Virus record (IMG/VR): IMGVR_UViG_3300034105_003214
Location: 1 to 62,756 of that record
Length of the DNA: 62,756 bases
Source: a virus
Lineage: Duplodnaviria; Caudoviricetes
Reading direction: 5' to 3' (one strand)
The stretch's first letter is position 1, and each line of letters opens with the position of its first letter. The notes beneath the pieces are model-generated. The model made no database searches, had not been told where the DNA came from, and saw nothing but the letters and a program-made list of their open reading frames with translations. The position numbers and the translations under genes were made by a program. Shown here piece by piece: positions 29,005-58,073 of this stretch.

Positions 29005-29193
29005 ATGGAACAAGAAAACAAAGCAGTAATCTATGATGAATGTCTTAGAGAAAGCGACCACTTACAGAGAGTAAATTCCAAGATAAAATCAGAATATGCT
29101 GGTAATATCCCACCTGAACAACAATTAATACTAGATAGAAACAATGAAAAAATTAGCTATCTAGTAAAAAGACTTGAAAGTTTATTTAGTTAA
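29005..29193 (+). CDS. Hypothetical protein
   Basis: ORF in operon. Confidence 0.55.
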   Translation: MEQENKAVIYDECLRESDHLQRVNSKIKSEYAGNIPPEQQLILDRNNEKISYLVKRLESLFS

Positions 29194-29867
29194 TGGAAGA
29201 AATTCAAATGGTTGTTAGTTATCTTGATAGATATTATAGAATTATTAATAATAACTGTATTAATGGTGAAGGTAATATCGTGACTGGTGATAGGATAGTC
29301 ACAAATATGGTCAAAATATTTAGCCTTTCGGAAGAGGTATGTGTGAACACCGTTAAAGAATGGGTTGAAACAAATGGATTAGAAAAATCAGTTTCTGATG
29401 AAATTAAATGGGTTAAACCATCACCAATACATCAACCTGTAAATAGGGCTAATTTTGGGTATGTTCCTTATGAACCAAAAAGACAAAACAGATTTTTGGT
29501 AAATATGCCACCAGAATTTGAAATACAGCAATGGGTGGTTAGAAAAGCATGTCGACCATCAACATATATTTTAAGAAATGGTCCTGATGGATGTGAAATT
29601 CGATATGACCCAATGGTTTTGGTTTTTGCTGACCCTATTGGTCCATCAGTAGCACAAAGACTAGCGATTATTTTACGTGAAAGACCAGGAGAACCATTTG
29701 ATTTTTCAATTGATTTGCTTGACCCAACTGGTGTTGTTATTGAACAATGGCTTTTTTCTGAATGTTACTTCGAATCAATGGATTTTGGTCCTTTAGATAT
29801 GGATATAGATGAAATGGTAACATGTAAAGTAACAATAATAATTGGTAATATGATTTTAAATTTCTAA
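29193..29867 (+). CDS. Fusion of an unknown N-terminal domain to a T4 gp19-like tail-tube domain
   Basis: YEPKRQNRF, RPS, FADPIGPSVAQ, LLDPTGVVIEQW, DFGPLD resemble large-myophage tube proteins. Confidence 0.6.
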   Translation: MEEIQMVVSYLDRYYRIINNNCINGEGNIVTGDRIVTNMVKIFSLSEEVCVNTVKEWVETNGLEKSVSDEIKWVKPSPIHQPVNRANFGYVPYEPKRQNRFLVNMPPEFEIQQWVVRKACRPSTYILRNGPDGCEIRYDPMVLVFADPIGPSVAQRLAIILRERPGEPFDFSIDLLDPTGVVIEQWLFSECYFESMDFGPLDMDIDEMVTCKVTIIIGNMILNF

Positions 29868-29897
29868 TAAAAAACCCACAATTACTGTGGGTTTTTT
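29868..29897. terminator. Bidirectional terminator
   Basis: AAAAAACCCACA-ATTAC-TGTGGGTTTTTT between convergent genes. Confidence 0.7.
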
Positions 29898-29898
29898 A

Positions 29899-30555
29899 TT
29901 ATGGTCTTGTACTAGTACGTCTTATTTTAGTATATGGCCAGCCAGTATTTTCGTGAATAACATCATAATATCTACCAATATTTGCTGGACTAGCAGTACC
30001 CATAAACAATAGACTCTTAATCTTTTGTTTCTTTGCAATTTTAGCTAGTGTATGGTGTAATCGTTGAGCATCTTCTAATTTCTTACAAATAATCATATCA
30101 AATTGGTCCTCGTTGTATATTATTAGTTTATTATACACAACAATGATTTGTTTAACCATTTTTTTACCATGAGCACCTATCATAAGTCTTTTAACAACTT
30201 CTGATATGGTAGGTCTATCTTTATTATTTTCTAATCCATGTATCCAGAAGGTTTCTTCTACATTATAATCAGCTGAAGCAAGGATTGTCCAATCACCTAG
30301 GGGTTCTTCAGTATATAATTTACCATATCCATCTCTAAGGGTACGGAAAGTATCACCTTCTTCAGTTATTTTTGTAACACATATTTGATACTTAACTGGT
30401 TTTAAACCATTAGAATTGATAAATTTTCTAGGGAACATGACGTTATTATTTTCTTTCAATGAATGAAAGTTAAGATAAGCTGTTTCACTAGTCTTACTCC
30501 TATGTAAAGTCTTCTTATATTTACCGTTTGCTAATAAAACTACTCGATATGTCAT
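29899..30555 (-). CDS. Hypothetical basic protein
   Basis: 218-aa ORF filling a gap. Confidence 0.65.
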   Translation of the reverse strand: MTYRVVLLANGKYKKTLHRSKTSETAYLNFHSLKENNNVMFPRKFINSNGLKPVKYQICVTKITEEGDTFRTLRDGYGKLYTEEPLGDWTILASADYNVEETFWIHGLENNKDRPTISEVVKRLMIGAHGKKMVKQIIVVYNKLIIYNEDQFDMIICKKLEDAQRLHHTLAKIAKKQKIKSLLFMGTASPANIGRYYDVIHENTGWPYTKIRRTSTRP

Positions 30556-30781
30556 TTAATTATTTGTTTATATGAATAAGTATACGTATATTTGCAAAAA
30601 AATAAATACATTAGAATGAAATAAACTATAGTAATATAGTCTTTTTATAGGTTTCTATACATTTATAATAATGTAAAAATGTTTTATTATACTGATAAAA
30701 TAGAATGTATTAATGGTGGGTATTTTGACATTGTTTATACTGATGAAATAGAAATGATTAATAATATTAAAATAAATAAAA

Positions 30782-31822
30782 ATGTCAAATAAAAAAGATT
30801 ATTACGAATTATTAGAATTATCAAAAAATGATAAAAATTTATCAAAGGATGAATTTAAATCTAAATTAAAAAGTAATTATAAAAAATTATGTAAAATTCA
30901 TCACCCAGATAAAGGGGGTGATGAAAATGCATTCAAAGAAGTTAATGAAGCATATGAAGTTTTATCTGATAATGATAAGAAACAAAAATATGACCAATTT
31001 GGTCATGAGGGTCAACAAAACCAACAAAGAAATCCATTTGGTGGTTTTGATTTTAATGGATTCCAACAATCACCTGAACGTTTTGGTTATAATATGAGTT
31101 TAAACATTAGATTAACGCTAGAAGAAATTTATACAGGTGTTAAAAAAACTTATAAATATTCTAGACATGATAGTTGTGATTCTTGCGGTGGTCATGGTGG
31201 TACTGATATTGATAATTGTGGTTCATGTAATGGGTCAGGTGTTATTACCAGGGTATTGCAAACCCCAATAGGAATGATGCAACAATCAATGCCATGTCCA
31301 ACTTGTTCTGGTCTTGGTACTAAATATAAAGTTCAATGTGGTAAATGTAGTGGAAGTGGAACAAAAACAATAGAAGAAAAAATTGATGTTGATATTCCAT
31401 CTGGTGTTCAACAAGGTATGACATTTATCATGAAAGGAAAAGGTCATGCGATAAAAAGTGGTAAGTGTGGTGATTTACTTATTAACGTTCAAGAATTATT
31501 ACATAAAACATATGAAAGAAGTGGTAATGATTTAAAACTTAATTTGAAAGTAAATTATCCTTTGCTTGTTCTAGGTGGTAAAGTAGAAATAGAAACAATT
31601 GATGGTGGTAAAATTAGAGTTTCTATACCAGAATATAGCGATGTTGGTTCTAATTTGAGAATACAAAAGAAAGGTATGAAATTTTATGGTCAAGACCAAA
31701 GAGGTGATGTAGTTATTACATTAAATGTGGAGATACCAAAAGATTTAGATGATGATGCCAAATCATTATTAATAGATTTAAAAGAAAAACTTGAAAAAAA
31801 TGTTGCTACAACAGAAAATTAG
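30782..31822 (+). CDS. dnaJ: DnaJ chaperone
   Basis: J domain with HPD; four CxxCxGxG repeats; C-terminal domain. Confidence 0.95.
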   Translation: MSNKKDYYELLELSKNDKNLSKDEFKSKLKSNYKKLCKIHHPDKGGDENAFKEVNEAYEVLSDNDKKQKYDQFGHEGQQNQQRNPFGGFDFNGFQQSPERFGYNMSLNIRLTLEEIYTGVKKTYKYSRHDSCDSCGGHGGTDIDNCGSCNGSGVITRVLQTPIGMMQQSMPCPTCSGLGTKYKVQCGKCSGSGTKTIEEKIDVDIPSGVQQGMTFIMKGKGHAIKSGKCGDLLINVQELLHKTYERSGNDLKLNLKVNYPLLVLGGKVEIETIDGGKIRVSIPEYSDVGSNLRIQKKGMKFYGQDQRGDVVITLNVEIPKDLDDDAKSLLIDLKEKLEKNVATTEN

Positions 31823-31880
31823 TTGTAAGTTTGCTAAAATAATAAAATAACAATTACTTTATAAATTAAATTAAAACAAG

Positions 31881-32288
31881 ATGGCAAAATTTGACGAACC
31901 ATTTGAGGACACCCAAGCACTATATGATGAAAAAATCCAAGCTGTGGGGTTAGACCAATTCATTAACATTACCGTTGTAGTAAACAACACCGCAAAAGAA
32001 CTTTTTAAAGTTAACAAAGCAAACGATTTATTGAAATACCGTACTGGTGATGATGTATTAATCGTGTTAAACGAAAAGATTTTTGAACAACTAACTGATG
32101 CTCAAAAACACATTGTTGTTGAAGATTCATTAGCTAGCATCCATTTCGATACTGAGAAGGATAGATTAATAATAACAAAACCAGATGTTATTGCATACTC
32201 TGGTGTCCTTTCTAAGTTCACGTTTGAAACTTGGAATGTGGTTAGAGAGTCCATTAAAACTCTTTATGCTGCTGAAAAATCCGAATAA
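31881..32288 (+). CDS. Hypothetical protein, putative phage metallopeptidase-like fold lacking HExxH
   Basis: FEQLTDAQKHIVVEDSL...KPDV pattern. Confidence 0.45.
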   Translation: MAKFDEPFEDTQALYDEKIQAVGLDQFINITVVVNNTAKELFKVNKANDLLKYRTGDDVLIVLNEKIFEQLTDAQKHIVVEDSLASIHFDTEKDRLIITKPDVIAYSGVLSKFTFETWNVVRESIKTLYAAEKSE

Positions 32289-32290
32289 TT

Positions 32291-32590
32291 ATGGCTCGTG
32301 ATGAAATAGCAGAAATTAATCCAGAAGCATTATTATGTGATGGATTCGATGAAGCAATTATAGGCATGGGTGAGAGAATTAACCTTGGCCCTGTTGTTGC
32401 TTATGATGTTGAAAAAATGCTTAGCATATTAGCATTGGATATGGAAGTTGAGGAATCTGATTTACAAGAAGGTGAAACAATTGAAATGTTAAAATATAGT
32501 ATGGCTTTAGAATATTTTGAGTTCAATATAAAAGGTGCATGGATGGGTGAATTTACACCAGTATTCATAACCACAAGTTTAAGTTATTAA
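32291..32590 (+). CDS. Conserved phage hypothetical protein
   Basis: DGFDEAIIG...EYFEFNIKGAWMGEFTP. Confidence 0.6.
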   Translation: MARDEIAEINPEALLCDGFDEAIIGMGERINLGPVVAYDVEKMLSILALDMEVEESDLQEGETIEMLKYSMALEYFEFNIKGAWMGEFTPVFITTSLSY

Positions 32591-32605
32591 AATAAAATTA
32601 AAACA

Positions 32606-33325
32606 ATGAATTTAACACACGATTTTAAACAATATGCTAAAGAGAATTTTGGTGTAACTGATTACGAATTTAATACTTGGGAAGGTATTCAACAAATGAT
32701 TTATAACCCAACAGTATTATCTGGATTCCAAGGTGTAAACGCATCCCTAACACCATATATTCTTGAAGAAAGAGAAATGCGTGTAACACAAATGGATATT
32801 TTCTCACGTTTAATGATGGACCGTATTATTTGGTTAGCTGGTCCAGTTAACGATAGAATGAGCACTGTTGTACAAGCACAACTTATGTTCTTAGACAACT
32901 TAGAAGTAAAAGATATCACACTTCACGTAGATACACCTGGTGGGTCAGTTAAATCTGGATTATCCATCGTAGATGTTATCAACTATGTAAAATCTGATAT
33001 TGTTACAGTTAACACTGGTATGGCAGCAAGTATGGGTAGTATCTTATTGGGTTCTGGTACAAAAGGTAAACGTTATTCGTTGCCTAATAGTAGAGTAATG
33101 CTTCACCAAGTATCAACTGGTGCTTCTGGAAATATCCAAGACATCAGACGTTCAATTGCTGAAGGTGAAAAATACAATACTAAATTGTTTGGTTTATTAG
33201 GTCAATATTGTGATAAAACACCAGAACAAGTATTGGAAGATGCAAGTCGTGATTTATGGTTGGATGCTGAAGAAGCAAAAGAATACGGAATCATTGATGA
33301 TATCATCACCACAAAGAAAAAATAA
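32606..33325 (+). CDS. clpP: ClpP protease proteolytic subunit
   Basis: MDIFSRLMMDRII, TPGGSV, GMAASMG, RVMLHQ, RDLWLDAEEAKEYGIID. Confidence 0.95.
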   Translation: MNLTHDFKQYAKENFGVTDYEFNTWEGIQQMIYNPTVLSGFQGVNASLTPYILEEREMRVTQMDIFSRLMMDRIIWLAGPVNDRMSTVVQAQLMFLDNLEVKDITLHVDTPGGSVKSGLSIVDVINYVKSDIVTVNTGMAASMGSILLGSGTKGKRYSLPNSRVMLHQVSTGASGNIQDIRRSIAEGEKYNTKLFGLLGQYCDKTPEQVLEDASRDLWLDAEEAKEYGIIDDIITTKKK

Positions 33326-33442
33326 TAGCAAAAAAACTTGCATCGAATAAAAAGATGTAGTATATTTGCACAAGATTTAAGAATATGTGGGTTTTTTTAA
33401 TAAAATCCACATATTTATAAATCACAAGTTCTTAAACATTAT

Positions 33443-33815
33443 GGGGGTAAACGGTATCGACAGGGTATGGTCGTGAATTGTAAGCATGTAGTGCTAGATT
33501 GGAAGCACTTAAATCTGTCTATTAAAAAATTGAATTGACAACGTATTTAACGTATCAGAAAATTTCTTGAACGAAACATCAGTGTTTTCAACAAGAGAGG
33601 TTGCAGTAGCCTAACAACTGCCAATTGTGGTAATCCACTGGATGGTGATAAATCACTAGAACCCACTTTTGTATGAGTGGTTAAGTCGGATACAAGTCAT
33701 TATAGATATGGGACTAGCACTATCTTGAAAGATTGCCAGTTAAATGAATTGGATAAACATGTAGAAAGCCTTTTGTGAATGCTTTTGGACAGGGGTTCGA
33801 CTCCCCTTGCCTCCA
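33443..33815 (+). ncRNA. ssrA: tmRNA
   Basis: GGGGGTA/TGCCTCC acceptor stem with G3-U70, TATCGAC, GCATGT/ACATGT helix, T-arm AGGGG-TTCGACT-CCCCT; tag frame 33537-33614 DNVFNVSENFLNETSVFSTREVAVA*. Confidence 0.92.
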
Positions 33816-33930
33816 CTCTTAGTGATTCTGCTCAACAATAACCTTTGAGACAGAAATAACAAACCTCTGATAAGTCGCTTTTTCAGAGGTTAAATTTATC
33901 AAATAAAAAAAGGGCTTAATAGCCCTTTAA

Positions 33931-33981
33931 TTATTTTTTTGGTGGTTTACAACCGCAACCTTTAGTGTTCTGTGTTTTCAT
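33931..33981 (-). CDS. Putative 16-aa micropeptide MKTQNTKGCGCKPPKK
   Basis: Upstream GTATTTAT box near 34015-34023 on the minus strand; hairpin near 33909-33928 downstream. Confidence 0.35.
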   Translation of the reverse strand: MKTQNTKGCGCKPPKK

Positions 33982-34056
33982 GGTGTTAGTTTTTTAGATG
34001 ATGTTATGTTATATATAAATACTTGACAAATATATTTTATTTATTATATTTATGTT

Positions 34057-34296
34057 ATGAATGAAATTAAATATACGGTGTCAATTTTAGATAGTAAATG
34101 GCAACCAATAAAAAGAAATGTAGAAATGATTATCATCCCAAGAAGAGATGAATATGTCTATATGAATGAACAATATTATGAAGTTCTTAATGTCGTTCAT
34201 ACACTTAACGAAAAACAAGATATTTTTGTTATAGTTAATGAAATGGTAAAAAATATTAACCCACAAGAACCTGAAAATCAGGAAATTGAAAAATAA
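34057..34296 (+). CDS. Hypothetical protein
   Basis: ORF. Confidence 0.55.
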   Translation: MNEIKYTVSILDSKWQPIKRNVEMIIIPRRDEYVYMNEQYYEVLNVVHTLNEKQDIFVIVNEMVKNINPQEPENQEIEK

Positions 34297-34398
34297 TATA
34301 AAAATAGTTACAAAAAAACTTGTTATATCATATATTATTTAGTATATTTGCATATAATTAATAAACACACGTTCATACACATAATAAAAATATCTAAA

Positions 34399-34635
34399 AA
34401 GATGGGTTCTGCAACAAAAAAACAGACAAACTTAAGAGGCTAATTTGGTATGGAAGATATTTTATCTTCCCATGATTAGAAAAAATGGTAATTTCTCCAT
34501 TCAAAAGAAAACCGTCAACCACCCCAAAAGGTGCAAGTAGGATGTAGTTGAATAATAGTAAACTCTCGCCAAAGCAAAGCCGAAGACGTAAAATGGGTTA
34601 ATCCGCTGGGATGAAAAATACAAATAACCATCTTG
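34399..34635 (+). ncRNA. Putative ncRNA B of the TNCWGCAA family
   Basis: AAGATGG/CCATCTT closing stem, TTCTGCAA box, internal hairpins, no long ORF. Confidence 0.55.
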
Positions 34636-34647
34636 AGATAAATTTTA

Positions 34648-34707
34648 TGGGACAGGACATTTAACTTGGACAGCCAAAAGGCAGAGTTGTAAGTCTGGAC
34701 AGTCCCA
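34648..34707 (+). ncRNA. Putative structured RNA
   Basis: TGGGAC/GTCCCA closing stem, internal GCC-AAAA-GGC hairpin, repeated GGACA. Confidence 0.35.
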
Positions 34708-34722
34708 AATTAAATTGACAAA

Positions 34723-34773
34723 AGAATCAGTTCAGCAATCAAACAACACTTTATATGGAAAAAAGTGATTCTG
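34723..34773 (+). ncRNA. Putative ncRNA C of the TNCWGCAA family
   Basis: AGAATCA/TGATTCT stem, TTCAGCAA box. Confidence 0.55.
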
Positions 34774-34783
34774 GTCAACAATA

Positions 34784-34855
34784 TTACTATAAGCATGAGG
34801 GAAGTGCGGCATCCACTGGGGGTGAGGGTAAAAGGTTCGAGTCCTTTATAGTAGT
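34784..34855 (+). tRNA. tRNA-Pro(GGG)-like, poorly paired anticodon stem
   Basis: TTACTAT/ATAGTAG acceptor, GCAT/GTGC D-stem, CTGGGGG loop, AAAGG-TTCGAGT-CCTTT T-arm. Confidence 0.5.
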
Positions 34856-34862
34856 CTAATAA

Positions 34863-34937
34863 TGCGGAAGAGTGAAACGGAATATCACACTAGTCTCATA
34901 AGCTCGTAATATTGGGTTCGACTCCCATTTTCCGCAA
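34863..34937 (+). tRNA. tRNA-Met(CAT)
   Basis: TGCGGAA/TTCCGCA acceptor, CTCATAA loop, TGGG-TTCGACT-CCCA. Confidence 0.75.
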
Positions 34938-34942
34938 CTAAA

Positions 34943-35002
34943 AGAATGGTTACAGCAATTAAAAATATTTATCTGTAAAATAAACCAAAAAATGCTATTC
35001 TG
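34943..35002 (+). ncRNA. Putative ncRNA D of the TNCWGCAA family with a Tyr(GTA)-like anticodon hairpin
   Basis: AGAATGG/CTATTCT stem, TACAGCAA box, TTTAT-CTGTAAA-ATAAA. Confidence 0.55.
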
Positions 35003-35011
35003 AAATTTAAG

Positions 35012-35037
35012 AAGCCCATAGAAATATGGGCTTTTTT
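35012..35037 (+). terminator. Intrinsic terminator closing the first RNA island
   Basis: AAGCCCATA-GAAA-TATGGGCTTTTTT. Confidence 0.7.
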
Positions 35038-35100
35038 ATTTTACAAAAAGTTTGTTTATGTAAAAAATATTTTGTAAGTTTGTAAAAAAAAAAGAAAATT

Positions 35101-35424
35101 ATGAGTGAAACACCTAAAAAACTTAGATTCGGTTTAATTGAATCTCACAGCTACTCCGTATGGTACGATTCTATGACCATTGACGTATCAGACTATCCTG
35201 AATTGGAAGGTATGAGTAAAGAAGAAATGATTTCATATATCAACGAAAATTTCTGGGATATGAAATCGATGGAAGATGATGAATATACTTTGTTAGATGA
35301 TTTACAAAATATGGGTGACGTAAAAGATAAAATTTACGATGAAGAAAAAGAACTATATTTTGAAGAAATTGATGAAGATGATTATGATGAAGATGATGAA
35401 GATGATGAAGAAGAAGAGGAATAA
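35101..35424 (+). CDS. Very acidic hypothetical protein, paralog of next gene
   Basis: DVSDYPELEGMSKEEMISYINENFWDMK; D/E tail. Confidence 0.65.
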   Translation: MSETPKKLRFGLIESHSYSVWYDSMTIDVSDYPELEGMSKEEMISYINENFWDMKSMEDDEYTLLDDLQNMGDVKDKIYDEEKELYFEEIDEDDYDEDDEDDEEEEE

Positions 35425-35447
35425 TAATAAATTAAATAAATAAAATT

Positions 35448-35732
35448 ATGTCAGAAGAAAAAAAAGAAACACCTAAAACAATTTCAGTATTTGCAACTGA
35501 AGGTTACTCAACGTATATTGTTAGAGAACCAATCGAACTTAATGTTGAAGACTATCCAGAATTAGCTGGAATGGATAGAAAAGAAGCTATTGATTATATT
35601 GAATCAAACGCATGGGAAATGAAACCAACGAATGAAGAAGGTTATTATGAATCATTAGGTGAGGAACTTAACGATATGGATATTCATAGAGAGAAGTTAA
35701 ATAATGAATCTCAAGAGATAAACGCTGAATAA
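35448..35732 (+). CDS. Acidic hypothetical protein, paralog of previous gene
   Basis: NVEDYPELAGMDRKEAIDYIESNAWEMK. Confidence 0.65.
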   Translation: MSEEKKETPKTISVFATEGYSTYIVREPIELNVEDYPELAGMDRKEAIDYIESNAWEMKPTNEEGYYESLGEELNDMDIHREKLNNESQEINAE

Positions 35733-36271: not shown

Positions 36272-36275
36272 ATAT

Positions 36276-47565: not shown

Positions 47566-48762
47566 ATGAAAAAAAATATTTTAAATATAGAAATAATTAG
47601 ACCAGAACAAGAATTAATCATTATGGTTGGTGTTTCTGGTTCTGGTAAAAGTAGTAAAGCTAGAGAGATAGTAGGTAAAGGAGTTATTCACTCAACCGAT
47701 TCTGTTATAGAATCCTTAGGTGATTATAACTATTTTTTTAAAAAAATGATTGAATCAGGGAATTTTTCTGATTTATCCAGAGCTCATTTAATTAATATTA
47801 ATAATTCAATAAATTCAATTAAAAATGGTATTACCCCTTGTATTATTGATAACACTAATTTAAGTAAAAGTGAAATAAAACAATATGTTGAAAATGGGTT
47901 ATTACTTGGATTATCTGATGATAATATTAAAATTATTAAAATTGGAATTGATGATTTATCACCAGAAGAATTAACTAAAAGAAATTCACACGGTGTACCA
48001 TTAGAAAAGATAATAAAAATGATTCAAAAATATAAAAATTTGGGTGAGTTAACACTAAAAAATATTTTAGCATCTAAAGATATCTATCATAATAAAGTTG
48101 GTGTGTATAACTTAGTAAATTTAAAAAATGGTAAAGTGTATATAGGTAGTACTGGTAAATCTTTATCGTTAAGGAAAAAACAACACTTTAATAATTTAAA
48201 AAATGGTACTCATGAAAATCCAATTTTGCAAAAATCATACAATAAACATGGGTTAGAAAGTTTCAAATTTGAAATAATTGAAAGTTTTAATAATATAAAA
48301 ATAGAAAAATTATTAAAATTGGAAGAGAAATATATTTTAGAAAATGATTCAACAAACAGAAATTTTGGTTATAATATTTGTTCTGTTAGTCAATCTAGAT
48401 TAGGTACTAAATGGTCTGAAGAATCTAAAATAAATAGATGTGGAATAGGAAACCCAATGTTTGGTAAAGGTGATGATAGAAAAGGTAATAAAAACCCAAT
48501 GTTTGGTAAAAATGTATCTGAAGAAACTAGAAATAAACTATCAATAATTGGAAAAGGTGTAAAAAAACCAATGGTTAGTGAAAAATTAAGTGTTCCAATA
48601 GTTCAATTAGATATGTATGGTAATAAAATTAAAGAATTTAAATCTGGTGTTGAAGCTTTTAACGAAACAAAAATTTTTCATATTAATGCTGTATGTAATG
48701 GAAAAAGAAAACAAGCTGGTGGTTATGTATGGATTTTTAAAAAAGATTATACTGATAAATAA
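47566..48762 (+). CDS. AAA_33/PNK-like kinase fused in frame to a GIY-YIG homing endonuclease
   Basis: GVSGSGKS, IIDNTN, RNSHGVP; then GVYNL...VYIGST, NPMFGK x2, KRKQAGGYVW. Confidence 0.85.
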   Translation: MKKNILNIEIIRPEQELIIMVGVSGSGKSSKAREIVGKGVIHSTDSVIESLGDYNYFFKKMIESGNFSDLSRAHLININNSINSIKNGITPCIIDNTNLSKSEIKQYVENGLLLGLSDDNIKIIKIGIDDLSPEELTKRNSHGVPLEKIIKMIQKYKNLGELTLKNILASKDIYHNKVGVYNLVNLKNGKVYIGSTGKSLSLRKKQHFNNLKNGTHENPILQKSYNKHGLESFKFEIIESFNNIKIEKLLKLEEKYILENDSTNRNFGYNICSVSQSRLGTKWSEESKINRCGIGNPMFGKGDDRKGNKNPMFGKNVSEETRNKLSIIGKGVKKPMVSEKLSVPIVQLDMYGNKIKEFKSGVEAFNETKIFHINAVCNGKRKQAGGYVWIFKKDYTDK

Positions 48763-49847: not shown

Positions 49848-49851
49848 TATT

Positions 49852-50976: not shown

Positions 50977-50978
50977 TT

Positions 50979-51356: not shown

Positions 51357-51407
51357 TTTGGTAGTTTAAAAATAAGTATTATATTTGCACTCTAAAACAA
51401 TAACATT

Positions 51408-52814
51408 ATGAAAATTAAAGAAATTTTTGACGAAATTGCTGCTGAAGGTGGTACAAATGCTAAGGTTGCAATCCTTACAAAATATGTTGACAATGAATTG
51501 TTGAAACGTGTTTTATATTTAGCTAATTCTAAAAGGGTTAAATTTTATATTAAACAACTTCCAGAATACAGTTGGATTAACAATGGTGGTGAAACTTTAG
51601 AATGGGCGTTAGATGGGTTGAAACGTATTACTGATAGAAGCATTACTGGTACTGATGCATTAAATTGGCTTGTAGTTCTTTTAAGTGGTGTATCTACTGA
51701 TGATGCTTATATTCTTGAGCGTATCATTGACAAAGATTGTAAAATTGGTTTAGGTACCACTTACATGAATAAAGTATTCAAAGGTCTTATTGAAGATACT
51801 CCTTATATGGGTGCTGTATCGTTTGATGAGAAGAAAGCTCGTAAGGTATTTGAAAAAGGTGCCAAAGGAATATCACAAATCAAAATGGATGGTCGTTATT
51901 GCAACGCTATTGTTCGTAATGGTGAAGTTGAAATGGAAAGCCGCCAAGGTGAACCAACAATCCTTACTGGTGCTAAATTCTTGGAAGAATTAACTTCTTT
52001 CGAAGATTGCGTACTTAATGGTGAGTTAACTATGGATGGTGTATCTCGTTATGAGTCAAATGGTATCATTGCATCGCTTATTGATATTTGTTCTAAACGT
52101 GATTCCAGAACTGATAAAGAAAACGATAAGAAAATAACCAACTTTGAAGATAAGCATGGTAGTTTCACTGGTGCTTTAGAGAAAATCAGATACACCGTAT
52201 GGGATAGACTTACTGTTGATGAGTATTTCAACAAAGCTTCTAAACTTAAGTATGCTGAACGTTTAGCGTATTTGGAAAGATTAATTGAAAATGCTAATTC
52301 TTCTAGTGTTAAAATGATTGAAAGCACTATAGTTCATAACTATGCACAAGCAATGACACACTTCCAAGAAGTATTGGCTGCAGGTGAAGAAGGAACAATC
52401 CTTAAAGCATGGGATGGTGAGTGGAAAGATGGTAAACCAACATGGCAAATTAAATGTAAATTGGAATTGGATTTAGATTTGAAAATTACTGGATTTAACT
52501 ATGGGGCTAAAGGTACTAAAAATGAAAATGTTATTAGTTCATTAAATGTTGAAAGTTTATGTGGTAAACTAAAAACAAGACCACAAGGATTAAAAGAAAC
52601 TTTAATGAAAGAAATTACAGAAAATCAAGACAAATTATTAGGTACTATAATTGAAGTTAAGTGTTCTGGTTTATCACATGACAGTAATGGTAATTATTCA
52701 CTTCTTCACCCAGCATTTAAAGGTTTTAGGGATGATAAAATAGAAGCAAATACTTTAAAAGAATGTATTGAAATTCAAAATTCAGCTATTGGATTATCTT
52801 TAATAACAACGTAA
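51408..52814 (+). CDS. ATP-dependent DNA ligase
   Basis: IKMDGRY, LNGEL, VWD, EEGTILK, IKCK, LLHPAF..FRDDK. Confidence 0.9.
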   Translation: MKIKEIFDEIAAEGGTNAKVAILTKYVDNELLKRVLYLANSKRVKFYIKQLPEYSWINNGGETLEWALDGLKRITDRSITGTDALNWLVVLLSGVSTDDAYILERIIDKDCKIGLGTTYMNKVFKGLIEDTPYMGAVSFDEKKARKVFEKGAKGISQIKMDGRYCNAIVRNGEVEMESRQGEPTILTGAKFLEELTSFEDCVLNGELTMDGVSRYESNGIIASLIDICSKRDSRTDKENDKKITNFEDKHGSFTGALEKIRYTVWDRLTVDEYFNKASKLKYAERLAYLERLIENANSSSVKMIESTIVHNYAQAMTHFQEVLAAGEEGTILKAWDGEWKDGKPTWQIKCKLELDLDLKITGFNYGAKGTKNENVISSLNVESLCGKLKTRPQGLKETLMKEITENQDKLLGTIIEVKCSGLSHDSNGNYSLLHPAFKGFRDDKIEANTLKECIEIQNSAIGLSLITT

Positions 52815-52815
52815 T

Positions 52816-52989
52816 ATGGAAATAATATTCACAATAATCGGAATTTTAATTAGTATCTTATTACCTTTGGTAATATTATTTATCTTATTTTTTGGTTATC
52901 AAAGATATAAAGTAAAAAAGAAATCAGATTTTTTCTTTAATAAAAAAATGAGTGAAACAATAATAAAAAATAAAAATAAAATAATATGA
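52816..52989 (+). CDS. Small membrane protein (not in ORF track)
   Basis: MEIIFTIIGILISILLPLVILFILFFGY...; fills the gap. Confidence 0.45.
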   Translation: MEIIFTIIGILISILLPLVILFILFFGYQRYKVKKKSDFFFNKKMSETIIKNKNKII

Positions 52990-53195
52990 AAATAGATTAC
53001 GGTAGCGAAGAATTAATCTCCGCATTTTACGATTATAATGGGGAAATGGAAGATGGAAGAAAGTTCATTATTCATGCGACTTGGGATTCTTGGGATGAAT
53101 ATGGGGTTGATTCAATTGAATGGTTAAATGATGCAGAAGGAACTGATGAAGAGGAAGAGGAAATAATTGAACAATTTTTATCTGATAATAATTAA
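52986..53195 (+). CDS. Small very acidic protein
   Basis: D/E-rich ORF. Confidence 0.55.
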   Translation: MKIDYGSEELISAFYDYNGEMEDGRKFIIHATWDSWDEYGVDSIEWLNDAEGTDEEEEEIIEQFLSDNN

Positions 53196-53196
53196 C

Positions 53197-53859
53197 ATGA
53201 AAAAATTAATTTTAGTCATGTTGTTAATCACAATAAGTGGTTATAGTCAAATTAAACTAGATTCATTATCTATTAGTAAAGATTCCGTAATCAATACTAA
53301 GGTTAAAAGTTCATGGTATGTTAGAAGTATGTTTGTTTCTTTGATGAGTGCTGGTCAACTTGGTGAGACGTTATCAGAACGCATTACTCAAAATATTGAA
53401 TTTGGTAAGTCGATAGGTATGGTAGATGTTGGATTGGCTATTGGTAAAGCTAAATTAATTAATTATAGTTCTGATAGCTATTTGGTAGATAATTCTATTA
53501 TTACACAATACCAAGACCATAATGAAAATAAATTATACATTCAGGGTAGATTAACAATGGATGCATGTCAATATGGTATTTTCAGTAATGAAATTTCAAT
53601 TGGTGCTGGTTATACATTTTCTAAAACAATGCCAATCATGCTTGAGATTTCATCAACAATCTTTGCACAGGTTGGTGATAATTGGGGTTTAGGAATTATA
53701 ATTGGTACTTATAATTTTACTGGTGATAATGATGATTTAAATAAATCTTTCACTGGTTTATTTTTAAGATATGGTTTAATAAGAGATGATGGTGGTATAT
53801 TATTAAACAGGACACGTGTAACACGTTCAAAACGACCAATCCATAATAAAGTTAAATAA
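53197..53859 (+). CDS. Secreted, possibly outer-membrane beta-barrel protein
   Basis: MKKLILVMLLITISGYSQ signal peptide of Bacteroidota type; alternating beta-strand pattern. Confidence 0.5.
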   Translation: MKKLILVMLLITISGYSQIKLDSLSISKDSVINTKVKSSWYVRSMFVSLMSAGQLGETLSERITQNIEFGKSIGMVDVGLAIGKAKLINYSSDSYLVDNSIITQYQDHNENKLYIQGRLTMDACQYGIFSNEISIGAGYTFSKTMPIMLEISSTIFAQVGDNWGLGIIIGTYNFTGDNDDLNKSFTGLFLRYGLIRDDGGILLNRTRVTRSKRPIHNKVK

Positions 53860-53873
53860 TAAAAATAGATAAA

Positions 53874-54914
53874 ATGAAAAAAATGATAAAATTTCCGTCT
53901 ATCGAGCAGTTTAGAAGTGTCGTGACGAATATAAACAGACATTACAACTATGTTGGGTTAGATGAAAATGGTGATGCTATTTATGACCATACATTACCTA
54001 AACCAACACTTACCTTTAAAGGTACTGTTAAGTTACATGGAACCAATGCTGCTGTATCTTATAATAAAGATGGTGGGTTTTGGGCACAATCTCGTGAGAA
54101 TATCATTACACCAGAAAAAGATAACGCAGCTTTCGCTTTCTTTGCTGAATCTAACAAAGATGCTTTTAATAAGTTATTCCGTGAGATTCAAGAAAAAACT
54201 AATGTTAGTTACGAACATAATACAGTCACTATTTATGGTGAGTGGTGTGGTGGTAATATTCAAAAAGGTGTTGGTATTACCAATCTCCCTAAATCTTTCT
54301 TTATTTTTGGGGTTAAGATTAGTCCAATCGTTGCTGATGAAGAAGAATTAAAAAACCAACCAGCTTATTGGGTTGATTATTCATATTTGAAATCACCAGA
54401 AAACAAAATCTACAATATTGATGACTATGAAACATTTTCAATTGATATTGATTTTAACATGCCTGCTTTGGTTCAAAATCAATTATCTGAACTTACTATC
54501 GCTGTTGAAGAAGAATGTCCTGTAGCGAAAGCTTTTGGCTTCTCTGGAATCGGTGAAGGTATTGTTTGGTCAACTGAAGTAAAAGGTATCACTCATCGCT
54601 TTAAGGTGAAAGGTGAAAAACACTCTAGTTCTAAGGTTAAAACTCTTGCAAGTGTTGATGTTGAAAAATTGGAGGGTATTCAAAAATTTGTAGAATATGC
54701 AGTTACTGAAAGTCGTTTCAATCAAGCACTTGAAAATACATTCATTAATGATGAACCAATCGATGTTAAAAAGATGGGTGATGTTATCAGATGGGTTGTA
54801 AATGATGTAGTAAAAGAAGAAATGGATACTATGGTAACCAATAACATTGAACCTAAAGAAATAAATAAATATCTTTCCAGCAAAGTAAGGGAGATGTTCT
54901 TTAAAATGGTTTAA
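53874..54914 (+). CDS. RNA ligase 2-like protein
   Basis: TVKLHGTNA, QSR, IYGEWCG..IQKGV, GEGIVW, FKVK. Confidence 0.8.
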   Translation: MKKMIKFPSIEQFRSVVTNINRHYNYVGLDENGDAIYDHTLPKPTLTFKGTVKLHGTNAAVSYNKDGGFWAQSRENIITPEKDNAAFAFFAESNKDAFNKLFREIQEKTNVSYEHNTVTIYGEWCGGNIQKGVGITNLPKSFFIFGVKISPIVADEEELKNQPAYWVDYSYLKSPENKIYNIDDYETFSIDIDFNMPALVQNQLSELTIAVEEECPVAKAFGFSGIGEGIVWSTEVKGITHRFKVKGEKHSSSKVKTLASVDVEKLEGIQKFVEYAVTESRFNQALENTFINDEPIDVKKMGDVIRWVVNDVVKEEMDTMVTNNIEPKEINKYLSSKVREMFFKMV

Positions 54915-54962
54915 TAGTTGACTTTTGAACTTTGTTTGTTATCTTTATAAAAAAATAAAATT

Positions 54963-55166
54963 ATGATAACAAATAAAGTTTTTAGATTAAAACACGCTGC
55001 AGAAGTAGCACCAGGAATGCCACTACAAGGTGGCCAAGAATTAGAGATTGTAACTGATGTGGTTTACGTAAATGGAAACATGGTACCACCAGATATGCAA
55101 TCTTTATTCTATAATTGGATTATTAATAACCAAGGATTATTTGATGACGTAACAAAAAATTGGTGA
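54963..55166 (+). CDS. Hypothetical protein
   Basis: ORF. Confidence 0.55.
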   Translation: MITNKVFRLKHAAEVAPGMPLQGGQELEIVTDVVYVNGNMVPPDMQSLFYNWIINNQGLFDDVTKNW

Positions 55167-55225
55167 TTAAATTTTTTATTTGAAATAATTAATTTATCTT
55201 TGCAAAGAATTTAATATAATTTATC

Positions 55226-56518
55226 ATGATAATTAAAGAAAACGGTTTAAGATACGCCAAATTAATTCATGTTTCTGTTGATAACGGAATGACTGATAAT
55301 AGTAACAAAGTTTATATCATGGAAGAACTTTCCGATGGTACTATCAAATGTGAATACGGTAGAGTTGGACGTAGTTTAACTACTGAGATTAAACCTTCAA
55401 GCAAATGGGATAGTGTTCTTAAACAGAAACTATCTAAAACAAAAGGTTATACTGATGTTACTGAATTCTTAGCTGAACCAGTAATTGATGCTACCAGTGG
55501 TTCAACAGCTACTGCTAAAACTGAAGAGATTAAAAACTCTGTGGTTAAAAGACTTATCGACCAATTAATGAGCTTTGCAAACAAAGCAATCCAAAGAAAC
55601 TATAAGGTTACTCAAGAAGCTGTATCTGAACAACAAGTAAATGCTGCTCAGGAATTAATTGATACTATTAGTTTTAAATTGGTCTTGAATGTTGATAAGA
55701 AAGACATCAATGACTTGTTACTTAAATTATATACCATTATCCCTAGAAGAATGGATAATGTACGTGATTATCTTATCAATGATGTAAACGATGTTAATTC
55801 CTTAGAAAAAGCACAAAAATTCATTGGACAAGAACAATCTACATTAGATACGATGGCAGGTCAGGTTCAATTGATTAAACAACAAAAAGCCGCTGCTGAC
55901 GCTCCAGAAGAAGAACAAGTTGACCAAATTACAATCCTTGACCAAATGGGTCTTAGAGTTGATGTTGAAGAAGATACTGAAACACTTGCTCTTGTCACTA
56001 AGCTTATGGGCCCTAACGCTCACCAAGTTAAACAAGTCTTTAAGGTTGTTAATACCAAAACACAAAAAGTATTTGACACTCACTTTGAACAAGCTAAGGT
56101 TAAGAAAAGAAGACTTTACTGGCATGGTTCCCGTAATGAGAACTGGTTTAACATCTTACAAACTGGTTTATTGATTAGACCTTCTGGTGCTGTTCATACT
56201 GGTAGTATGTTTGGTGATGGTATCTACTTTGCTGATAAAGCACAGAAATCTATCGGTTATTCATCGTTGAGAGGTTCTTATTGGACCAAAGGTGGTGATG
56301 ATAAAGCATATTTAGCGTTGTTTGATGTTCATTTAGGAAATCAAAAAGAAATCCTTAACCACACATCTAGTTGTTATTCATTATCTGATAAAGTATTGAA
56401 AAAAGACGATTACGATTCAGTATTTGCCAAAGGTGGTGCTGATTTAAGAAACAATGAATACATCGTTTATAACGCAGCACAATGTACTGTATCGCATTTA
56501 ATTGAAATTGGAAACTAA
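55226..56518 (+). CDS. PARP-like ADP-ribosyltransferase (WGR-like, helical regulatory and catalytic domains)
   Basis: NKVY...YGRVG; LYTIIPR; LYWHGSR, GSMFGDGIYFA..AQKS.GY, NNEYIVYN. Confidence 0.88.
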   Translation: MIIKENGLRYAKLIHVSVDNGMTDNSNKVYIMEELSDGTIKCEYGRVGRSLTTEIKPSSKWDSVLKQKLSKTKGYTDVTEFLAEPVIDATSGSTATAKTEEIKNSVVKRLIDQLMSFANKAIQRNYKVTQEAVSEQQVNAAQELIDTISFKLVLNVDKKDINDLLLKLYTIIPRRMDNVRDYLINDVNDVNSLEKAQKFIGQEQSTLDTMAGQVQLIKQQKAAADAPEEEQVDQITILDQMGLRVDVEEDTETLALVTKLMGPNAHQVKQVFKVVNTKTQKVFDTHFEQAKVKKRRLYWHGSRNENWFNILQTGLLIRPSGAVHTGSMFGDGIYFADKAQKSIGYSSLRGSYWTKGGDDKAYLALFDVHLGNQKEILNHTSSCYSLSDKVLKKDDYDSVFAKGGADLRNNEYIVYNAAQCTVSHLIEIGN

Positions 56519-56721
56519 TGGCATCATTTGAATTAAACGAAGTAGAACAAAAGACATTAGACAAATTGATACAAGCGATTAACATTGTGTATGGTGATAA
56601 TCTAAGTGCAAAAATAACATATTGTTTCACCCATACAGGTATTGGTTGTAACGTAAAAGTTATAATAAAATGGGGTGATAATACAATAGAAAAAGACATA
56701 ACCGACTACGATAGTTGGTAG
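56518..56721 (+). CDS. Conserved phage hypothetical protein
   Basis: TYCFTHTGIG...DITDYDSW. Confidence 0.6.
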   Translation: MASFELNEVEQKTLDKLIQAINIVYGDNLSAKITYCFTHTGIGCNVKVIIKWGDNTIEKDITDYDSW

Positions 56722-56760
56722 TTTACTATCAATAGTAAATAGTAAAAAACCAAAAGAAAA

Positions 56761-57474
56761 ATGAATGATTTAAGAACAGGGTACGATTGGTGCCTATCAG
56801 CTAATATGAGAATCCTTGACATTTCGTCATGGGATACTGACATGGTGTCATGTGAAGATTCATATAACACAGAAAAAATAACATCAGATGAATTTATAAG
56901 ACGTATTGAGTTATGCAAAGTTAAAGCTAACTCAATGCCTCGTAAGACAGTTATGTATTTAGAATATCGTATGTATGGATTAGTTGCCTATCAATTATCT
57001 GGTACAATACATGCTGGAATTCAATTTGGTCATGCAGTAGTCGAATATCAACAAAATGTTAAAGGATTACCACCACATGAAGCAATTTATAATAAATGGG
57101 CTAAAAATGATAAAACATTCATTATCCTTAATGGTGGAACTACCAACAATAACCCAGAAAAAATGGGAAGCCTTAATCAGCACTTAGCTGCATTGTATTT
57201 TAATGGTATTATCACATCAGAGTTCTATGAACCAGATTTGGGTGACCAATTAACAGCGTTTGTTTTCTTGGTTGATGAAAGAGTTTTTAATAGAACTCTT
57301 TATCCAGACTTTCAAGAAGAAAAATTACCTTATGGTGTTCGTAAACCATCTAAGAAAGTTGAAACTGAATTAGAAGAACGCAACGAAGCCAACTACGAAA
57401 AATGGGTTGATAAAATTGGTGGGCCCACCAATGCATTCTTAAGAGAATTTTTAAAACCGCTTAGATTAGCTTAA
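56761..57474 (+). CDS. Peptidyl-tRNA hydrolase 2 (Pth2)-like fold protein
   Basis: MY.LV..QLS..HAGIQFGHA, KTFIILNGG, FYEPDLGDQLTA. Confidence 0.55.
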   Translation: MNDLRTGYDWCLSANMRILDISSWDTDMVSCEDSYNTEKITSDEFIRRIELCKVKANSMPRKTVMYLEYRMYGLVAYQLSGTIHAGIQFGHAVVEYQQNVKGLPPHEAIYNKWAKNDKTFIILNGGTTNNNPEKMGSLNQHLAALYFNGIITSEFYEPDLGDQLTAFVFLVDERVFNRTLYPDFQEEKLPYGVRKPSKKVETELEERNEANYEKWVDKIGGPTNAFLREFLKPLRLA

Positions 57475-57512
57475 AAACTTGACTTATTCTAAATTTATCT
57501 TTATACTTGTAT

Positions 57513-58073
57513 ATGGATGAATTTAGAAAGTTTGGTCAAATATTAAACTATATTAAAAAGTATTACTATGTTAAAGATGGTATATTTTTTAATAGGTATC
57601 ATGAACATGAATATGGTAACGATATTATTCGTGAATTACCTAAGATATTTAGTGTTGATAGAGAAGATTGTATAGAGATATTCAAGAATTGGGCTGAATC
57701 TCATGGTGTTGAATATCTAGATACAGATGCTTATGGTTCACATAAGTTAAAAAGTTACTGGTCACCTGAAATGATTCAAGATTTAACTGCCTTTAGGAAT
57801 ATTGATGCTGAAGCAGAATTAACCGCAATTTTAAGTGAACAAATAGCTGCTGAAATAGATGCACAAATTCTTTTGGATTTAAGAGGACAACTTAATGCTA
57901 ATGACTTGCTTGATGTAATTAAATGTGTTGGTTATGAAAAAGGCCCAACAATCTATGACCCAACAACATTCTCTCCAAAGAATTATTTTACTTCAATGAA
58001 AAAACACCAAATACAATATGAACGACAGAATAACCCTCACTGGCAGAATTGGATTAAAAATCGTCCATCTTAA
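57513..58073 (+). CDS. Fusion of an unknown N-terminal domain to a T4 gp23-like major-capsid segment
   Basis: WSPEMIQDLTAFRNIDAEAELTAILSEQIAAEIDAQIL resembles the conserved gp23 helix region; far too short for a capsid protein. Confidence 0.65.
   Translation: MDEFRKFGQILNYIKKYYYVKDGIFFNRYHEHEYGNDIIRELPKIFSVDREDCIEIFKNWAESHGVEYLDTDAYGSHKLKSYWSPEMIQDLTAFRNIDAEAELTAILSEQIAAEIDAQILLDLRGQLNANDLLDVIKCVGYEKGPTIYDPTTFSPKNYFTSMKKHQIQYERQNNPHWQNWIKNRPS

Follow-up and report, generated by a model that had tools for sequence, protein, structure and literature searches.

Phage proteins joining a common N-terminal domain to a trimmed tail-tube domain or to a piece of the major capsid protein

The viral record IMGVR_UViG_3300034105_003214 (Duplodnaviria; Caudoviricetes), analysed here over its full length of 62,756 bases (the window; completeness estimate about 18%), carries two genes, gene 1 at 29193-29867 (+) and gene 2 at 57513-58073 (+), whose products begin with the same small domain and continue into sequence related to a phage structural protein, the tail tube in gene 1 and the major capsid protein in gene 2. 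Our analysis indicates that the two genes very probably belong to one lineage-restricted family, in which a common N-terminal domain (N-domain) is followed by a variable linker and by a piece of capsid or tube protein that was copied long ago. As to function, we tentatively favour the interpretation that the structural pieces are putative non-polymerising mimics intercepting host factors that recognise unassembled capsid or tube protein.

The shared N-terminal domain

The N-termini of the two proteins can be aligned over 59 residues without a gap, 17 positions being identical and 32 similar (pairwise BLASTP E 6e-9), and this includes the KIFS...E.C....K.W.E..G stretch quoted in an earlier note on this DNA, which had put the gapless likeness at about 55 amino acids (aa). 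The alignment was also significant by profile, as hhalign of 15 family-1 sequences (the gene 1 type) against 21 family-2 sequences (the gene 2 type), where neither profile contained the other family, gave a probability of 97.1% and E 7.6e-11 over 61 columns. Both window genes matched a local N-domain profile, which included both of them, at E 1e-27 to 6e-32. The two AlphaFold2 (AF2) models rest on largely independent alignments and place helices (H) and strands (E) in the same order, with H2-14, E15-18, E21-24, H32-43 and H47-60 in gene 1 and H3-17, E18-21, E24-27, H35-46 and H50-63 in gene 2. The pattern YL...Y...IF...W occurs within the N-terminal ~65 aa of both proteins, and across 15 diverse copies Y10, Y15 and W57 (gene 1 numbering) were invariant and F43 near-invariant. 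The invariant positions hold aromatic residues, and a conserved polar pattern hinting at catalysis was not seen.

Searches for relatives of this domain gave a best E of 0.035 in Pfam (17 N-domains) and, for the profile against PDB sequences, a 43-residue FliF peptide at E 0.0067 that was taken as chance, while scores in the ESM Atlas reached at most 0.80, chance level by the tool's own figures. The fold of the whole gene 2 model found nothing at E <= 0.001 in the PDB (best 0.47) or in BFVD (best 0.059). By these searches the N-domain is a previously undescribed family of about 65 aa with no detectable relative. The gene 2 fold search did return a 105-aa protein of an uncultured phage (probability 0.97 over 76 columns) that may be a family member. 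The predicted complex of two N-domain copies scored 0.06 against a mark of 0.42, which is evidence neither way.

Gene 1 carries a trimmed tail-tube domain

Residues 169-215 of gene 1 matched the PHROG 4542 tail tube family at E 4.7e-7; Pfam gave no match for gene 1, and its orthologue in the related record G002 reached 17.5 bits against PF06841, where the cut-off is 28.2. Over residues ~92-224 gene 1 is 31-38% identical to true 162-aa gp19-type tube proteins. The AF2 model (mean predicted local distance difference test, pLDDT, 84.6) matched 63 PDB chains at E <= 0.001 in Foldseek, including T4 gp19 (5w5f, TMt 0.65), and comparisons with AFP, PVC and T4 tube proteins gave E 4.7e-8 to 4.8e-6 with probability 1.00 in all those listed. 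The gp19-like domain, which the earlier note had placed from about 29470, was found from nucleotide (nt) 29466 and has a tube fold by Foldseek.

The T4 gp19-type tube (PF06841, PHROG 4542) shares its fold and conserved motifs with the C-terminal 133 residues of gene 1, whereas gene 1 has an additional N-domain, has lost the tube N-terminus and has two shortened segments. In each of the 11 tube fusions aligned with six true tubes, T4 gp19 among them, the initial ~8 residues of the tube are missing and two segments are shorter, those equivalent to T4 gp19 ~53-60 and ~96-107; in gene 1 the shortened segments fall at about aa 131 and aa 164. The gene 1 tube domain keeps the conserved core motifs of true tubes. 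Named by position rather than by superposition, the trimmed elements would be the N-loop, the beta2-beta3 hairpin and the alpha-loop. These three loops have been described as ring-stacking contacts whose loss stops tube growth, with the beta2-beta3 loop as the largest ring-to-ring contact (PMC8718954). The same review reports that YSD1 protein without the N-loop stays monomeric, states in its passage on the beta2-beta3 loop that mostly hexameric YSD1 rings are left, and notes that T4 gp19 also carries an N-loop and an alpha-loop (PMC8718954). Paralogues of the tube protein in contractile tails include T4 gp54, gp48 and gp3 and the AFP/PVC tube-like proteins. To our knowledge no known tube paralogue has, as here, an N-domain in common with proteins that carry a capsid fragment.

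Gene 2 carries a piece of the major capsid protein

Residues 75-126 of gene 2 matched positions 146-197 of the 376-position Pfam Gp23 profile (PF07068) at E 3.8e-12 (46.7 bits, cut-off 24.4), which extends the gp23-like segment that had been noticed at about 57759-57872 to nt 57735-57890; the match covers 52 of the 376 profile positions and the remainder of the profile is unmatched. The PHROG major head protein was matched at E 8.5e-12. In the T4 gp23-type capsid protein the homologous elements are helices of the P-domain, and the gene 2 helix piece is identical to a real 674-aa capsid protein at 36 of 48 residues (75%). It corresponds to residues 263-307 of T4 gp23 (T4 sequence from NC_000866). 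The gene 2 model (mean pLDDT 77; predicted template modelling score, pTM, 0.45) has a short helix at residues 85-92 and a long one at 99-124 within the capsid piece. In T4, residues 292, 306 and 307 of gp23 have been placed in the spine helix, the site of bypass mutations for the gp31 co-chaperonin, and inter-capsomer contacts involve a short acidic helix of the P-domain (PMC9546572). From its position, the short helix of gene 2 may be the equivalent of this inter-capsomer contact helix. Gene 2 encodes 186 aa while real capsid proteins in related contigs have 579-674 aa, and unlike T4 gp24, a full-length gp23 paralogue seated in the capsid, gene 2 is a fragment on a foreign carrier domain.

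The conserved C-terminal tail of gene 2 may in part have the same source. A profile of this tail compared with 76 capsid proteins by hhalign gave a probability of 62.8% and E 7.1e-5 over 20 columns, which pair tail residues 142-161 with positions 575-594 of the 623 in the capsid; the reversed control gave E 0.57 and the pairwise comparison E 0.088. With moderate support only, this motif may derive from the capsid C-terminus.

Relatives of the window, as distinct from the window itself, have sister genes whose capsid piece maps to T4 gp23 94-135. The Gol region of T4 is described as 29 residues in the first quarter of gp23, its most conserved part, that bind EF-Tu, and Gol works as a bare peptide that triggers Lit (PMC3014915). 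Placed by the quarter of gp23 rather than by exact Gol residues, the Gol-like piece of the relatives appears to fall where Gol lies; the statement in the earlier note that Gol lies elsewhere in gp23 than the piece in gene 2 was correct. Gol demonstrates that a short linear piece of gp23 can act alone in a cell. In T4, however, it is part of the capsid protein itself and a liability for the phage, whereas here the equivalent stretch stands in a separate gene and is fused to a carrier.

By tblastn the gene 2 piece matched the capsid genes of cyanophages and of Flavobacterium, Xanthomonas, Escherichia and other phages. The capsid pieces are 72-77% identical to the lineage's own capsid type, which is at least as close as any other. 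These results bear on the possibility that the proteins are weapons against competing phages, as the earlier note had also proposed, namely dominant-negative subunits that would spoil the assembly of capsids or tails by T4-like phages that co-infect or superinfect. No parts of gp23-type capsid proteins are more widely conserved than the copied pieces, the trimming of the tube would be expected to stop ring stacking, and the promoter described below suggests expression before late genes, all of which would suit such a weapon. A phage whose capsid pieces are at least as close to its own capsid type would, however, poison itself, no mechanism of self-immunity is visible, and it is not obvious where on a folded capsid subunit an internal helix of 50 residues could dock. 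We consider this explanation distinctly unlikely.

The working tube and capsid genes of relatives

The window, a fragment of a genome, holds no further Gp23 or tube match. Relatives (G001-G004 and others) were reached using the two fusion proteins as queries. Among these, the 362,018-base record G001 is rated 100% complete, and the window is syntenic with it at ~13-94 kb, with gene order around both fusions kept. In G001 the capsid frame (638 aa) lies at 212-214 kb and the tube gene (162 aa) at 143111-143596. The N-domain-tube gene (~63 kb) is ~80 kb from this tube gene, and the N-domain-capsid-helix gene (~16 kb) is ~196 kb from this capsid gene. The closest locus-backed orthologue of gene 1 (78% identity) is at 93 kb of G002, where a separate 162-aa tube gene was found at 17406-17891. 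The 162-aa tubes of G001 and G002 are 66% and 64% identical to protein P0098, compared with 40% and 36% for the fusions. In contrast to a T4 gp19-type tube gene, gene 1 lies outside the tail module and its relatives keep a normal tube gene elsewhere; the concern that gene 1 might be the phage's sole true tube gene does not apply in G001 and G002. Judged from these relatives, neither gene 1 nor gene 2 is the working tube or capsid gene of the phage. In three records (L016, L030 and L069) the real capsid gene is preceded by an acidic open reading frame (ORF) that by eye is scaffold-like.

In the records compared outside this group the N-domain was not encountered. The profile found nothing in 13 of 13 records retrieved solely through their capsid gene, including a complete 312 kb genome with terminal repeats. 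The capsid proteins of these records are 50-57% identical to that of G001 where listed, which covers 11 of the 13 (55% for the 312 kb phage), and one is 76% identical. It likewise found nothing in five of five other phages, namely T4, a Flavobacterium phage, a Microcystis phage, a 484 kb uncultured phage and a Lak phage. On this distribution the N-domain family is confined to a sub-lineage. The Group 2 jumbo phages of Iyer et al. (PMC7824862), with a gp23-type capsid, a phage sigma-70-family factor, RNA ligases and repair genes, fit the window and G001; no mention of a family of capsid- or tube-fragment fusions was found in that comparison, and its supplementary tables could list one.

Family size and fusion partners

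A profile of the N-domain (alignment A5, 15 sequences from the window and locus references only) was searched against 1.84 billion cluster representatives and matched 389 of them at E <= 0.001, 30 of these at E <= 1e-10. The earlier proposal of a modular family, with a carrier domain and a structural-protein part, was borne out and widened, as the part may be a tube domain or any of four capsid pieces. Among the 150 matches listed, lengths ranged from 63 to 318 aa, the domain was N-terminal in nearly all, and three had a tandem double N-domain. Partners in these 150 were classified using local profiles built from 5 real capsid proteins and ~100 true tubes. The capsid helix piece was present in 40, the "Gol-like" capsid piece (profile positions 65-132) in 15, of which 3 then also had the N-terminal capsid piece 14-58, this N-terminal piece alone in 1, a capsid C-terminal piece in 2 (P0339 at E 6e-8; P0282 doubtful) and the tube domain in 9, while 66 had an unassigned tail of at least 20 aa and 17 almost no tail. 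The recognised partners are accordingly capsid pieces from four regions (58) or the tube domain (9). Independent libraries applied to the same 150 returned Pfam Gp23 in 47, PHROG major head in 42 and PHROG tail tube in 9, and no other structural family was found in Pfam or PHROGs.

When the 66 unassigned tails were compared by BLASTP with all ORFs of G001, 12 matched the G001 Gol-like protein and 7 a fourth, short-tail type. Capsid and tube are the sole detected copied sources, because no tail among the 150 listed matched any further ORF of this complete relative. When gene 1, gene 2 and three divergent members were compared by tblastn with 50,697 phage records, matches were confined to tube or capsid pieces, and the family-4 member had none in those records. 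The gene 1 region gave no blastn match, and a search for a related locus with P0153 found none.

Some members combine capsid pieces out of order. In L106 (G003, 1300-1884, -), P0238, P0270 and P0293 the Gol-like piece comes first and is followed by a stretch matching capsid ~14-58, which is upstream of it in the native capsid protein; in some members the second stretch was mapped to capsid residues 22-58. Copy number varies, with four genes in G001 and at least four within one third of G004, a tandem pair included. G001 has exactly one gene of each of four types, a figure to be read as a count only since all four trained the profile.

Two of these types are absent from the window. The third (family 3), with an N-domain and the equivalent of T4 gp23 94-135, was found in G001 (L109), G004 (L100) and G003 (L106), and its genes are directly 3' of a phage IF-3 gene in three records (by Pfam in two and by eye in the third). 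The fourth (family 4), in G001 (L099) and G004 (L097), has an N-domain and a short unassigned tail; its genes are directly 3' of a phage sigma-70-family gene, the start overlapping the sigma stop in G001, and G004 has two of them in tandem.

Selection and divergence

The helix piece of G001 shares 32 of 47 residues with the resident capsid gene and 66% of bases, with identity of 45% at third codon positions; half of the identical residues (16 of 32) use the same codon, and no exact run exceeds 14 nt. For gene 2 and a real capsid gene (L011), third positions are 23% identical at a protein identity of ~77%, and overall the capsid-like sequence has 68-77% amino-acid identity to real capsid proteins. 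Recent gene conversion with the capsid gene was rejected on these values (third positions 45% and 23% identical, longest exact run 14 nt). Because amino-acid identity is high while third codon positions have diverged, the substitution pattern indicates that the capsid-like sequence is kept by selection at the protein level and not by recent DNA exchange.

Among orthologues the folded parts are conserved and the linkers drift. Mean identity within family 1 (15 sequences) is 86% for the N-domain, 80% for the tube domain and 53% for the linker, and within family 2 (36 long forms) it is 56% for the N-domain, 58% for the helix piece, 62-67% for the tail and 51% for the linker. The helix piece was considered as the most conserved part of family 2 and rejected, given 62-67% in the tail against 58% in the helix and 56% in the N-domain. 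Gene 1 has 14 close full-length relatives (74-100% identity), and gene 2 has 35 full-length relatives (42-99% identity), nine shorter ones (130-143 aa) and one of 181 aa with a partial tail.

Gene 1 shares 32% identity with its syntenic orthologue in G001, the third lowest value among the 68 ORFs matched between that record and the window, the two lower ones being homing endonuclease matches. Gene 2 is 45% identical (11th lowest of the 68), compared with 55-72% for the genes adjacent to gene 1 or gene 2. By this comparison both window genes have diverged faster than their neighbours.

These data also allow the genes to be assessed as debris, that is, as non-functional fragments left by recombination or by nearby homing endonucleases. 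T4-like genomes shuffle sequence near homing endonuclease elements, and homing endonuclease genes flank gene 2 (58054-58596 and 59343-60068). Against this, the frames stay open and keep their length across dozens of clusters, conservation extends to every folded region, protein identity to the capsid is high with third positions near or at saturation and no exact DNA match longer than 14 nt, the promoter is conserved, and 389 diverse representatives exist. The debris explanation is almost certainly wrong; it is contradicted by the conservation data, on which the proteins are functional.

Promoters and expression layout

A sigma-70-type promoter-like site directly precedes gene 2, scoring 10 of 12 (TTGACT, 17 nt, TATACT, 5 nt, ATG). 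The gene 2 start is this ATG, as a TTG two codons upstream is without support from homologues, and the transcript is predicted to be leaderless or nearly so. The layout, with a promoter abutting the ATG, recurs at six of six family-2 and three of three family-3 loci, where scores are 8-11 of 12 and spacer sequences differ. In a motif-first scan, which counted frames of at least 50 codons with a promoter abutting the start, the whole of G001 yielded 7 such frames compared with 2 in the reversed control, its two best being the family-2 and family-3 genes, and the window yielded 3 compared with 0, gene 2 among them. The true capsid and tube genes of G001 have no similar promoter upstream. The window's best promoter-abutting site (11/12; TTGACA, 16 nt, TATATT, 6 nt, ATG) precedes a 79-aa ORF that is 54% identical in G001 and may share an expression class with gene 2.

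Gene 1 differs in layout. It is the end of a four-gene block that is preceded by a terminator-like hairpin, and the stop of the last upstream ORF overlaps its start codon. The three upstream ORFs have orthologues in G001 in the same order (33-61% identity), and the family libraries gave no match for them. The 114-aa protein among them ends in a Cys-rich motif, C-x-C-G-G-x-C-K-C, is 59% identical in G001, is always two genes 5' of the N-domain-tube gene and had no family match.

Leaderless transcripts of families 2 and 3, as predicted, raise the possibility that the proteins are regulators coupling expression to assembly, in which the N-domain would bind part of the transcription or translation machinery and the pool of free capsid or tube protein would be sensed by the structural piece. 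IF-3 disfavours the translation of leaderless mRNA in E. coli, and N-domain genes are directly 3' of a phage IF-3 gene in three records and of a phage sigma-70-family gene in two. The Gol region of T4 gp23 has, in addition, been reported to bind EF-Tu (PMC3014915). However, the N-domain has no likeness to nucleic-acid- or factor-binding domains in the searches described above (Pfam E 0.035; PDB E 0.0067; none by the gene 2 fold search), and neighbourhood alone is weak evidence; moreover, the neighbours of gene 1 (DnaJ) are not those of gene 2 (PARP and hydrolase). A regulatory role of this kind appears quite improbable.

Possible functions of the fusion proteins

Building on the observed homology, trimming, separate location, separate conserved promoter, protein-level selection and rapid divergence, we infer expression time, failure to polymerise, binding partner and outcome as follows. 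The structural piece would act as a mimic unable to polymerise and would be expressed separately from the late structural genes, by a promoter of its own. It would engage host factors for unassembled capsid or tube protein, most plausibly immune sensors, and the shared N-domain would see to it that no harm follows, for instance by preventing the bound factor from becoming active or oligomerising. Titration of host sensors had already been proposed in the earlier note, as a hypothesis for which the support is circumstantial.

Several lines of evidence are consistent with such mimics. The copied pair, capsid and tube, are both documented immune triggers, and one piece appears to lie where Gol does. 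Avs7, Avs8 and Avs10 are reported to be triggered by capsid and another Avs family by tube (preprint 10.64898/2026.01.04.697583), and DSR2 is triggered by tube protein through binding surfaces that conflict with tube-tube contacts (PMC11850899). The tube domain is without its putative stacking elements, and the genes stand apart from structural modules with a separate promoter type. The out-of-order capsid pieces fit separately acting epitopes better than a folded capsid domain. Fast evolution, variable copy number and lineage restriction may further be taken as signs of a gene family in conflict.

A number of observations weigh against this interpretation. A mimic with a trigger epitope should itself set off the sensor, and the model needs a putative extra job for the N-domain. 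The piece carried by gene 2 itself (T4 263-307) is not the Gol region. Avs7 is reported to envelop the whole capsid fold (preprint 10.64898/2026.01.04.697583), and a 50-residue piece would not reproduce its target. PADLOC and NCBIfam models gave no match for gene 1, gene 2 or their neighbours. Early expression would follow from a promoter-like motif alone, in an AT-rich region where promoter-like sites (23) are not enriched over shuffles (28.1 +/- 5.7), and family-1 genes have no promoter-abutting site, gene 1 appearing to be coupled to its upstream ORFs. The presence of the N-domain in five of five related records by the closely similar A4 profile is circular, as these records were found with the fusion queries. 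That the capsid piece has stayed close to the resident capsid sequence would be explained just as well by an action on the phage's own capsid protein, and conserved synteny of both genes across distant relatives is less typical of accessory counter-defence.

The main rival of the mimic explanation is a role in controlling the phage's own assembly. Here the pieces would bind the unassembled capsid or tube protein of the phage, its chaperones or its scaffold through native-like contacts and would delay, cap or guide folding or polymerisation; gene 2, for example, would act at the capsomer-edge contact or aid P-domain folding, and gene 1 would cap tube rings. The capsid piece is 68-77% identical to the real capsid although synonymous sites are near saturation, as would be expected of a piece obliged to go on fitting the same surfaces, and in T4 the spine helix and the short acidic helix are the sites of gp31 bypass mutations and of inter-capsomer contacts, respectively (PMC9546572). 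A tube domain that keeps its core motifs and loses its stacking loops looks as a cap should, both the window and G001 have a full DnaJ gene ~0.9 kb downstream of gene 1, and synteny of both genes is kept across relatives whose orthologues are 32-45% identical. Nevertheless, the family is absent from the complete 312 kb phage, whose capsid is 55% identical to that of G001, from 12 other records of that capsid type, and from T4 and four other large phages, which implies that gp23-type assembly does not generally need it. The genes are also far from the structural modules and their promoter type differs from that of the capsid and tube genes, the tube domain is 36-40% identical to the resident tube, and the out-of-order capsid pieces are hard to fit to native-like docking. 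On balance, control of the phage's own assembly seems possible but somewhat unlikely.

Returning to the interception of host factors, a more far-reaching form of this explanation, which we regard as doubtful, is a modular mimic system. One carrier would be combined at will with the most conserved capsid pieces (N-terminal, Gol-equivalent, P-domain helices and C-terminal motif) or with a stripped tube domain, and the capsid-piece genes would be expressed leaderless from their own promoters before the virion proteins. The products would saturate or disarm host factors that detect or exploit free capsid and tube protein, such as Lit-like, Avs-like or DSR2-like sensors or EF-Tu. If true, this would be the first counter-defence built from copies of a phage's own immune triggers. 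The same logic is known from DSAD1, a phage protein that occupies DSR2, a sensor otherwise binding the tail tube protein (PMC11087589, PMC11850899). Sensor binding by the N-domain family, unlike that by DSAD1, is a proposal. We know of no evidence that DSAD1 derives from a tube protein. In the literature we found no description of such fusions or of trigger-derived mimics; the supplements of the jumbo-phage comparison and of the Avs study might bear on this.

More and more bacterial immune systems are being found that sense the capsid or tail-tube proteins of phages, and to the question of how a phage can cope when the sensed protein is indispensable this family offers a testable candidate answer. 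If the proteins instead control assembly, they would represent a new kind of assembly factor made from fragments of its own target protein. Either way, the N-domain represents a family not described before at the fold level, whose diverse members number in the hundreds, and the fragments mark which parts of gp23-type capsid proteins can act alone.

Genomic context

The features of the window are collected in Table 1. The earlier note had placed both genes among non-structural genes, and this held for those neighbours that could be named (DnaJ, DUF2828/DUF7788, PARP, RNA ligase, hydrolase, RlaP and homing endonucleases), but many neighbours remain without a name.

Table 1. Features of the window discussed in the text
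Feature	Position	Strand	Description or basis
ArdC-like protein	17668-20253	+	861 aa
DUF2828 + DUF7788 protein	26718-28157	+	479 aa; just 5' of gene 1 block
Terminator-like hairpin	28319-28348		before gene 1 block
ORF block before gene 1	28411..29193	+	three small co-oriented ORFs: 80, 114, 62 aa
Cys-rich protein	28657-29001	+	114 aa; within ORF block
Gene 1	29193..29867	+	224 aa: N-domain, linker, trimmed tail-tube domain
Gene 1 N-domain, aa 1-68	29193..29396	+	hhalign vs family 2; AF2 helix-strand-strand-helix-helix
Gene 1 linker, aa 69-91, variable	29397..29465	+	pLDDT <50 at residues 79-82, 87-90
Gene 1 tail-tube domain, aa 92-224	29466..29864	+	alignment with true tubes; Foldseek
DnaJ	30782-31822	+	full-length
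ORF with promoter-abutting ATG	34057-34296	+	79 aa
GIY-YIG/NUMOD3 homing-endonuclease-like gene	47566-48762	+	fused to AAA_33 kinase-like N-terminus
RNA ligase	53874-54914		gene 2 neighbourhood
PARP catalytic domain protein	55226-56518		gene 2 neighbourhood
'Hydrolase' by PHROG	56761-57474		gene 2 neighbourhood
Sigma-70-type promoter-like site, TTGACT-17 nt-TATACT	57479..57507	+	5 nt before gene 2 ATG
Gene 2	57513..58073	+	186 aa: N-domain, capsid P-domain helices, conserved tail
Gene 2 N-domain, aa 1-70	57513..57722	+	alignments; AF2 secondary structure
Gene 2 capsid helix piece, residues 75-126	57735..57890	+	Pfam Gp23; real capsid alignment
Gene 2 C-terminal tail, aa 127-186, conserved	57891..58070	+	absent from short forms (~131 aa)
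Capsid-C-terminus-like motif in gene 2, residues 142-161	57936-57995	+	tail profile vs capsid proteins
HNH-like endonuclease gene, convergent	58054..58596	-	3' end overlaps last 20 nt of gene 2
PHROG 12204 protein	58832-59353		173 aa; gene 2 neighbourhood
GIY-YIG homing-endonuclease-like gene	59343-60068	-
RlaP nucleotidyltransferase	61094-62278		gene 2 neighbourhood

The region around gene 2 (53874-62278) forms a neighbourhood of RNA repair and ADP-ribosylation. Two H-x-S motifs, seen by eye in the orthologues of relatives, suggest that the PHROG 12204 protein in this neighbourhood is a candidate 2H phosphoesterase. The product of the convergent gene overlapping gene 2 gave no match in a Pfam scan and matched PHROGs weakly (endonuclease VII E 6.9e-4; HNH endonuclease E 3.4e-3). 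The best G001 matches of the three homing-endonuclease-like genes of the window are non-syntenic, and these genes look like recent insertions.

On either side of gene 1, the DUF2828 + DUF7788 protein is 77% identical to that of G001, and the DnaJ, which has a J domain, a zinc-finger domain and a C-terminal domain, is 55% identical to the G001 copy. Further upstream, an ArdC N-terminal-like domain was recognised in the 861-aa protein at E 6.3e-6, and IrrE/M78 peptidases were matched weakly, at E 0.0069, which is below the cut-off; the pairing is reminiscent of anti-restriction proteins.

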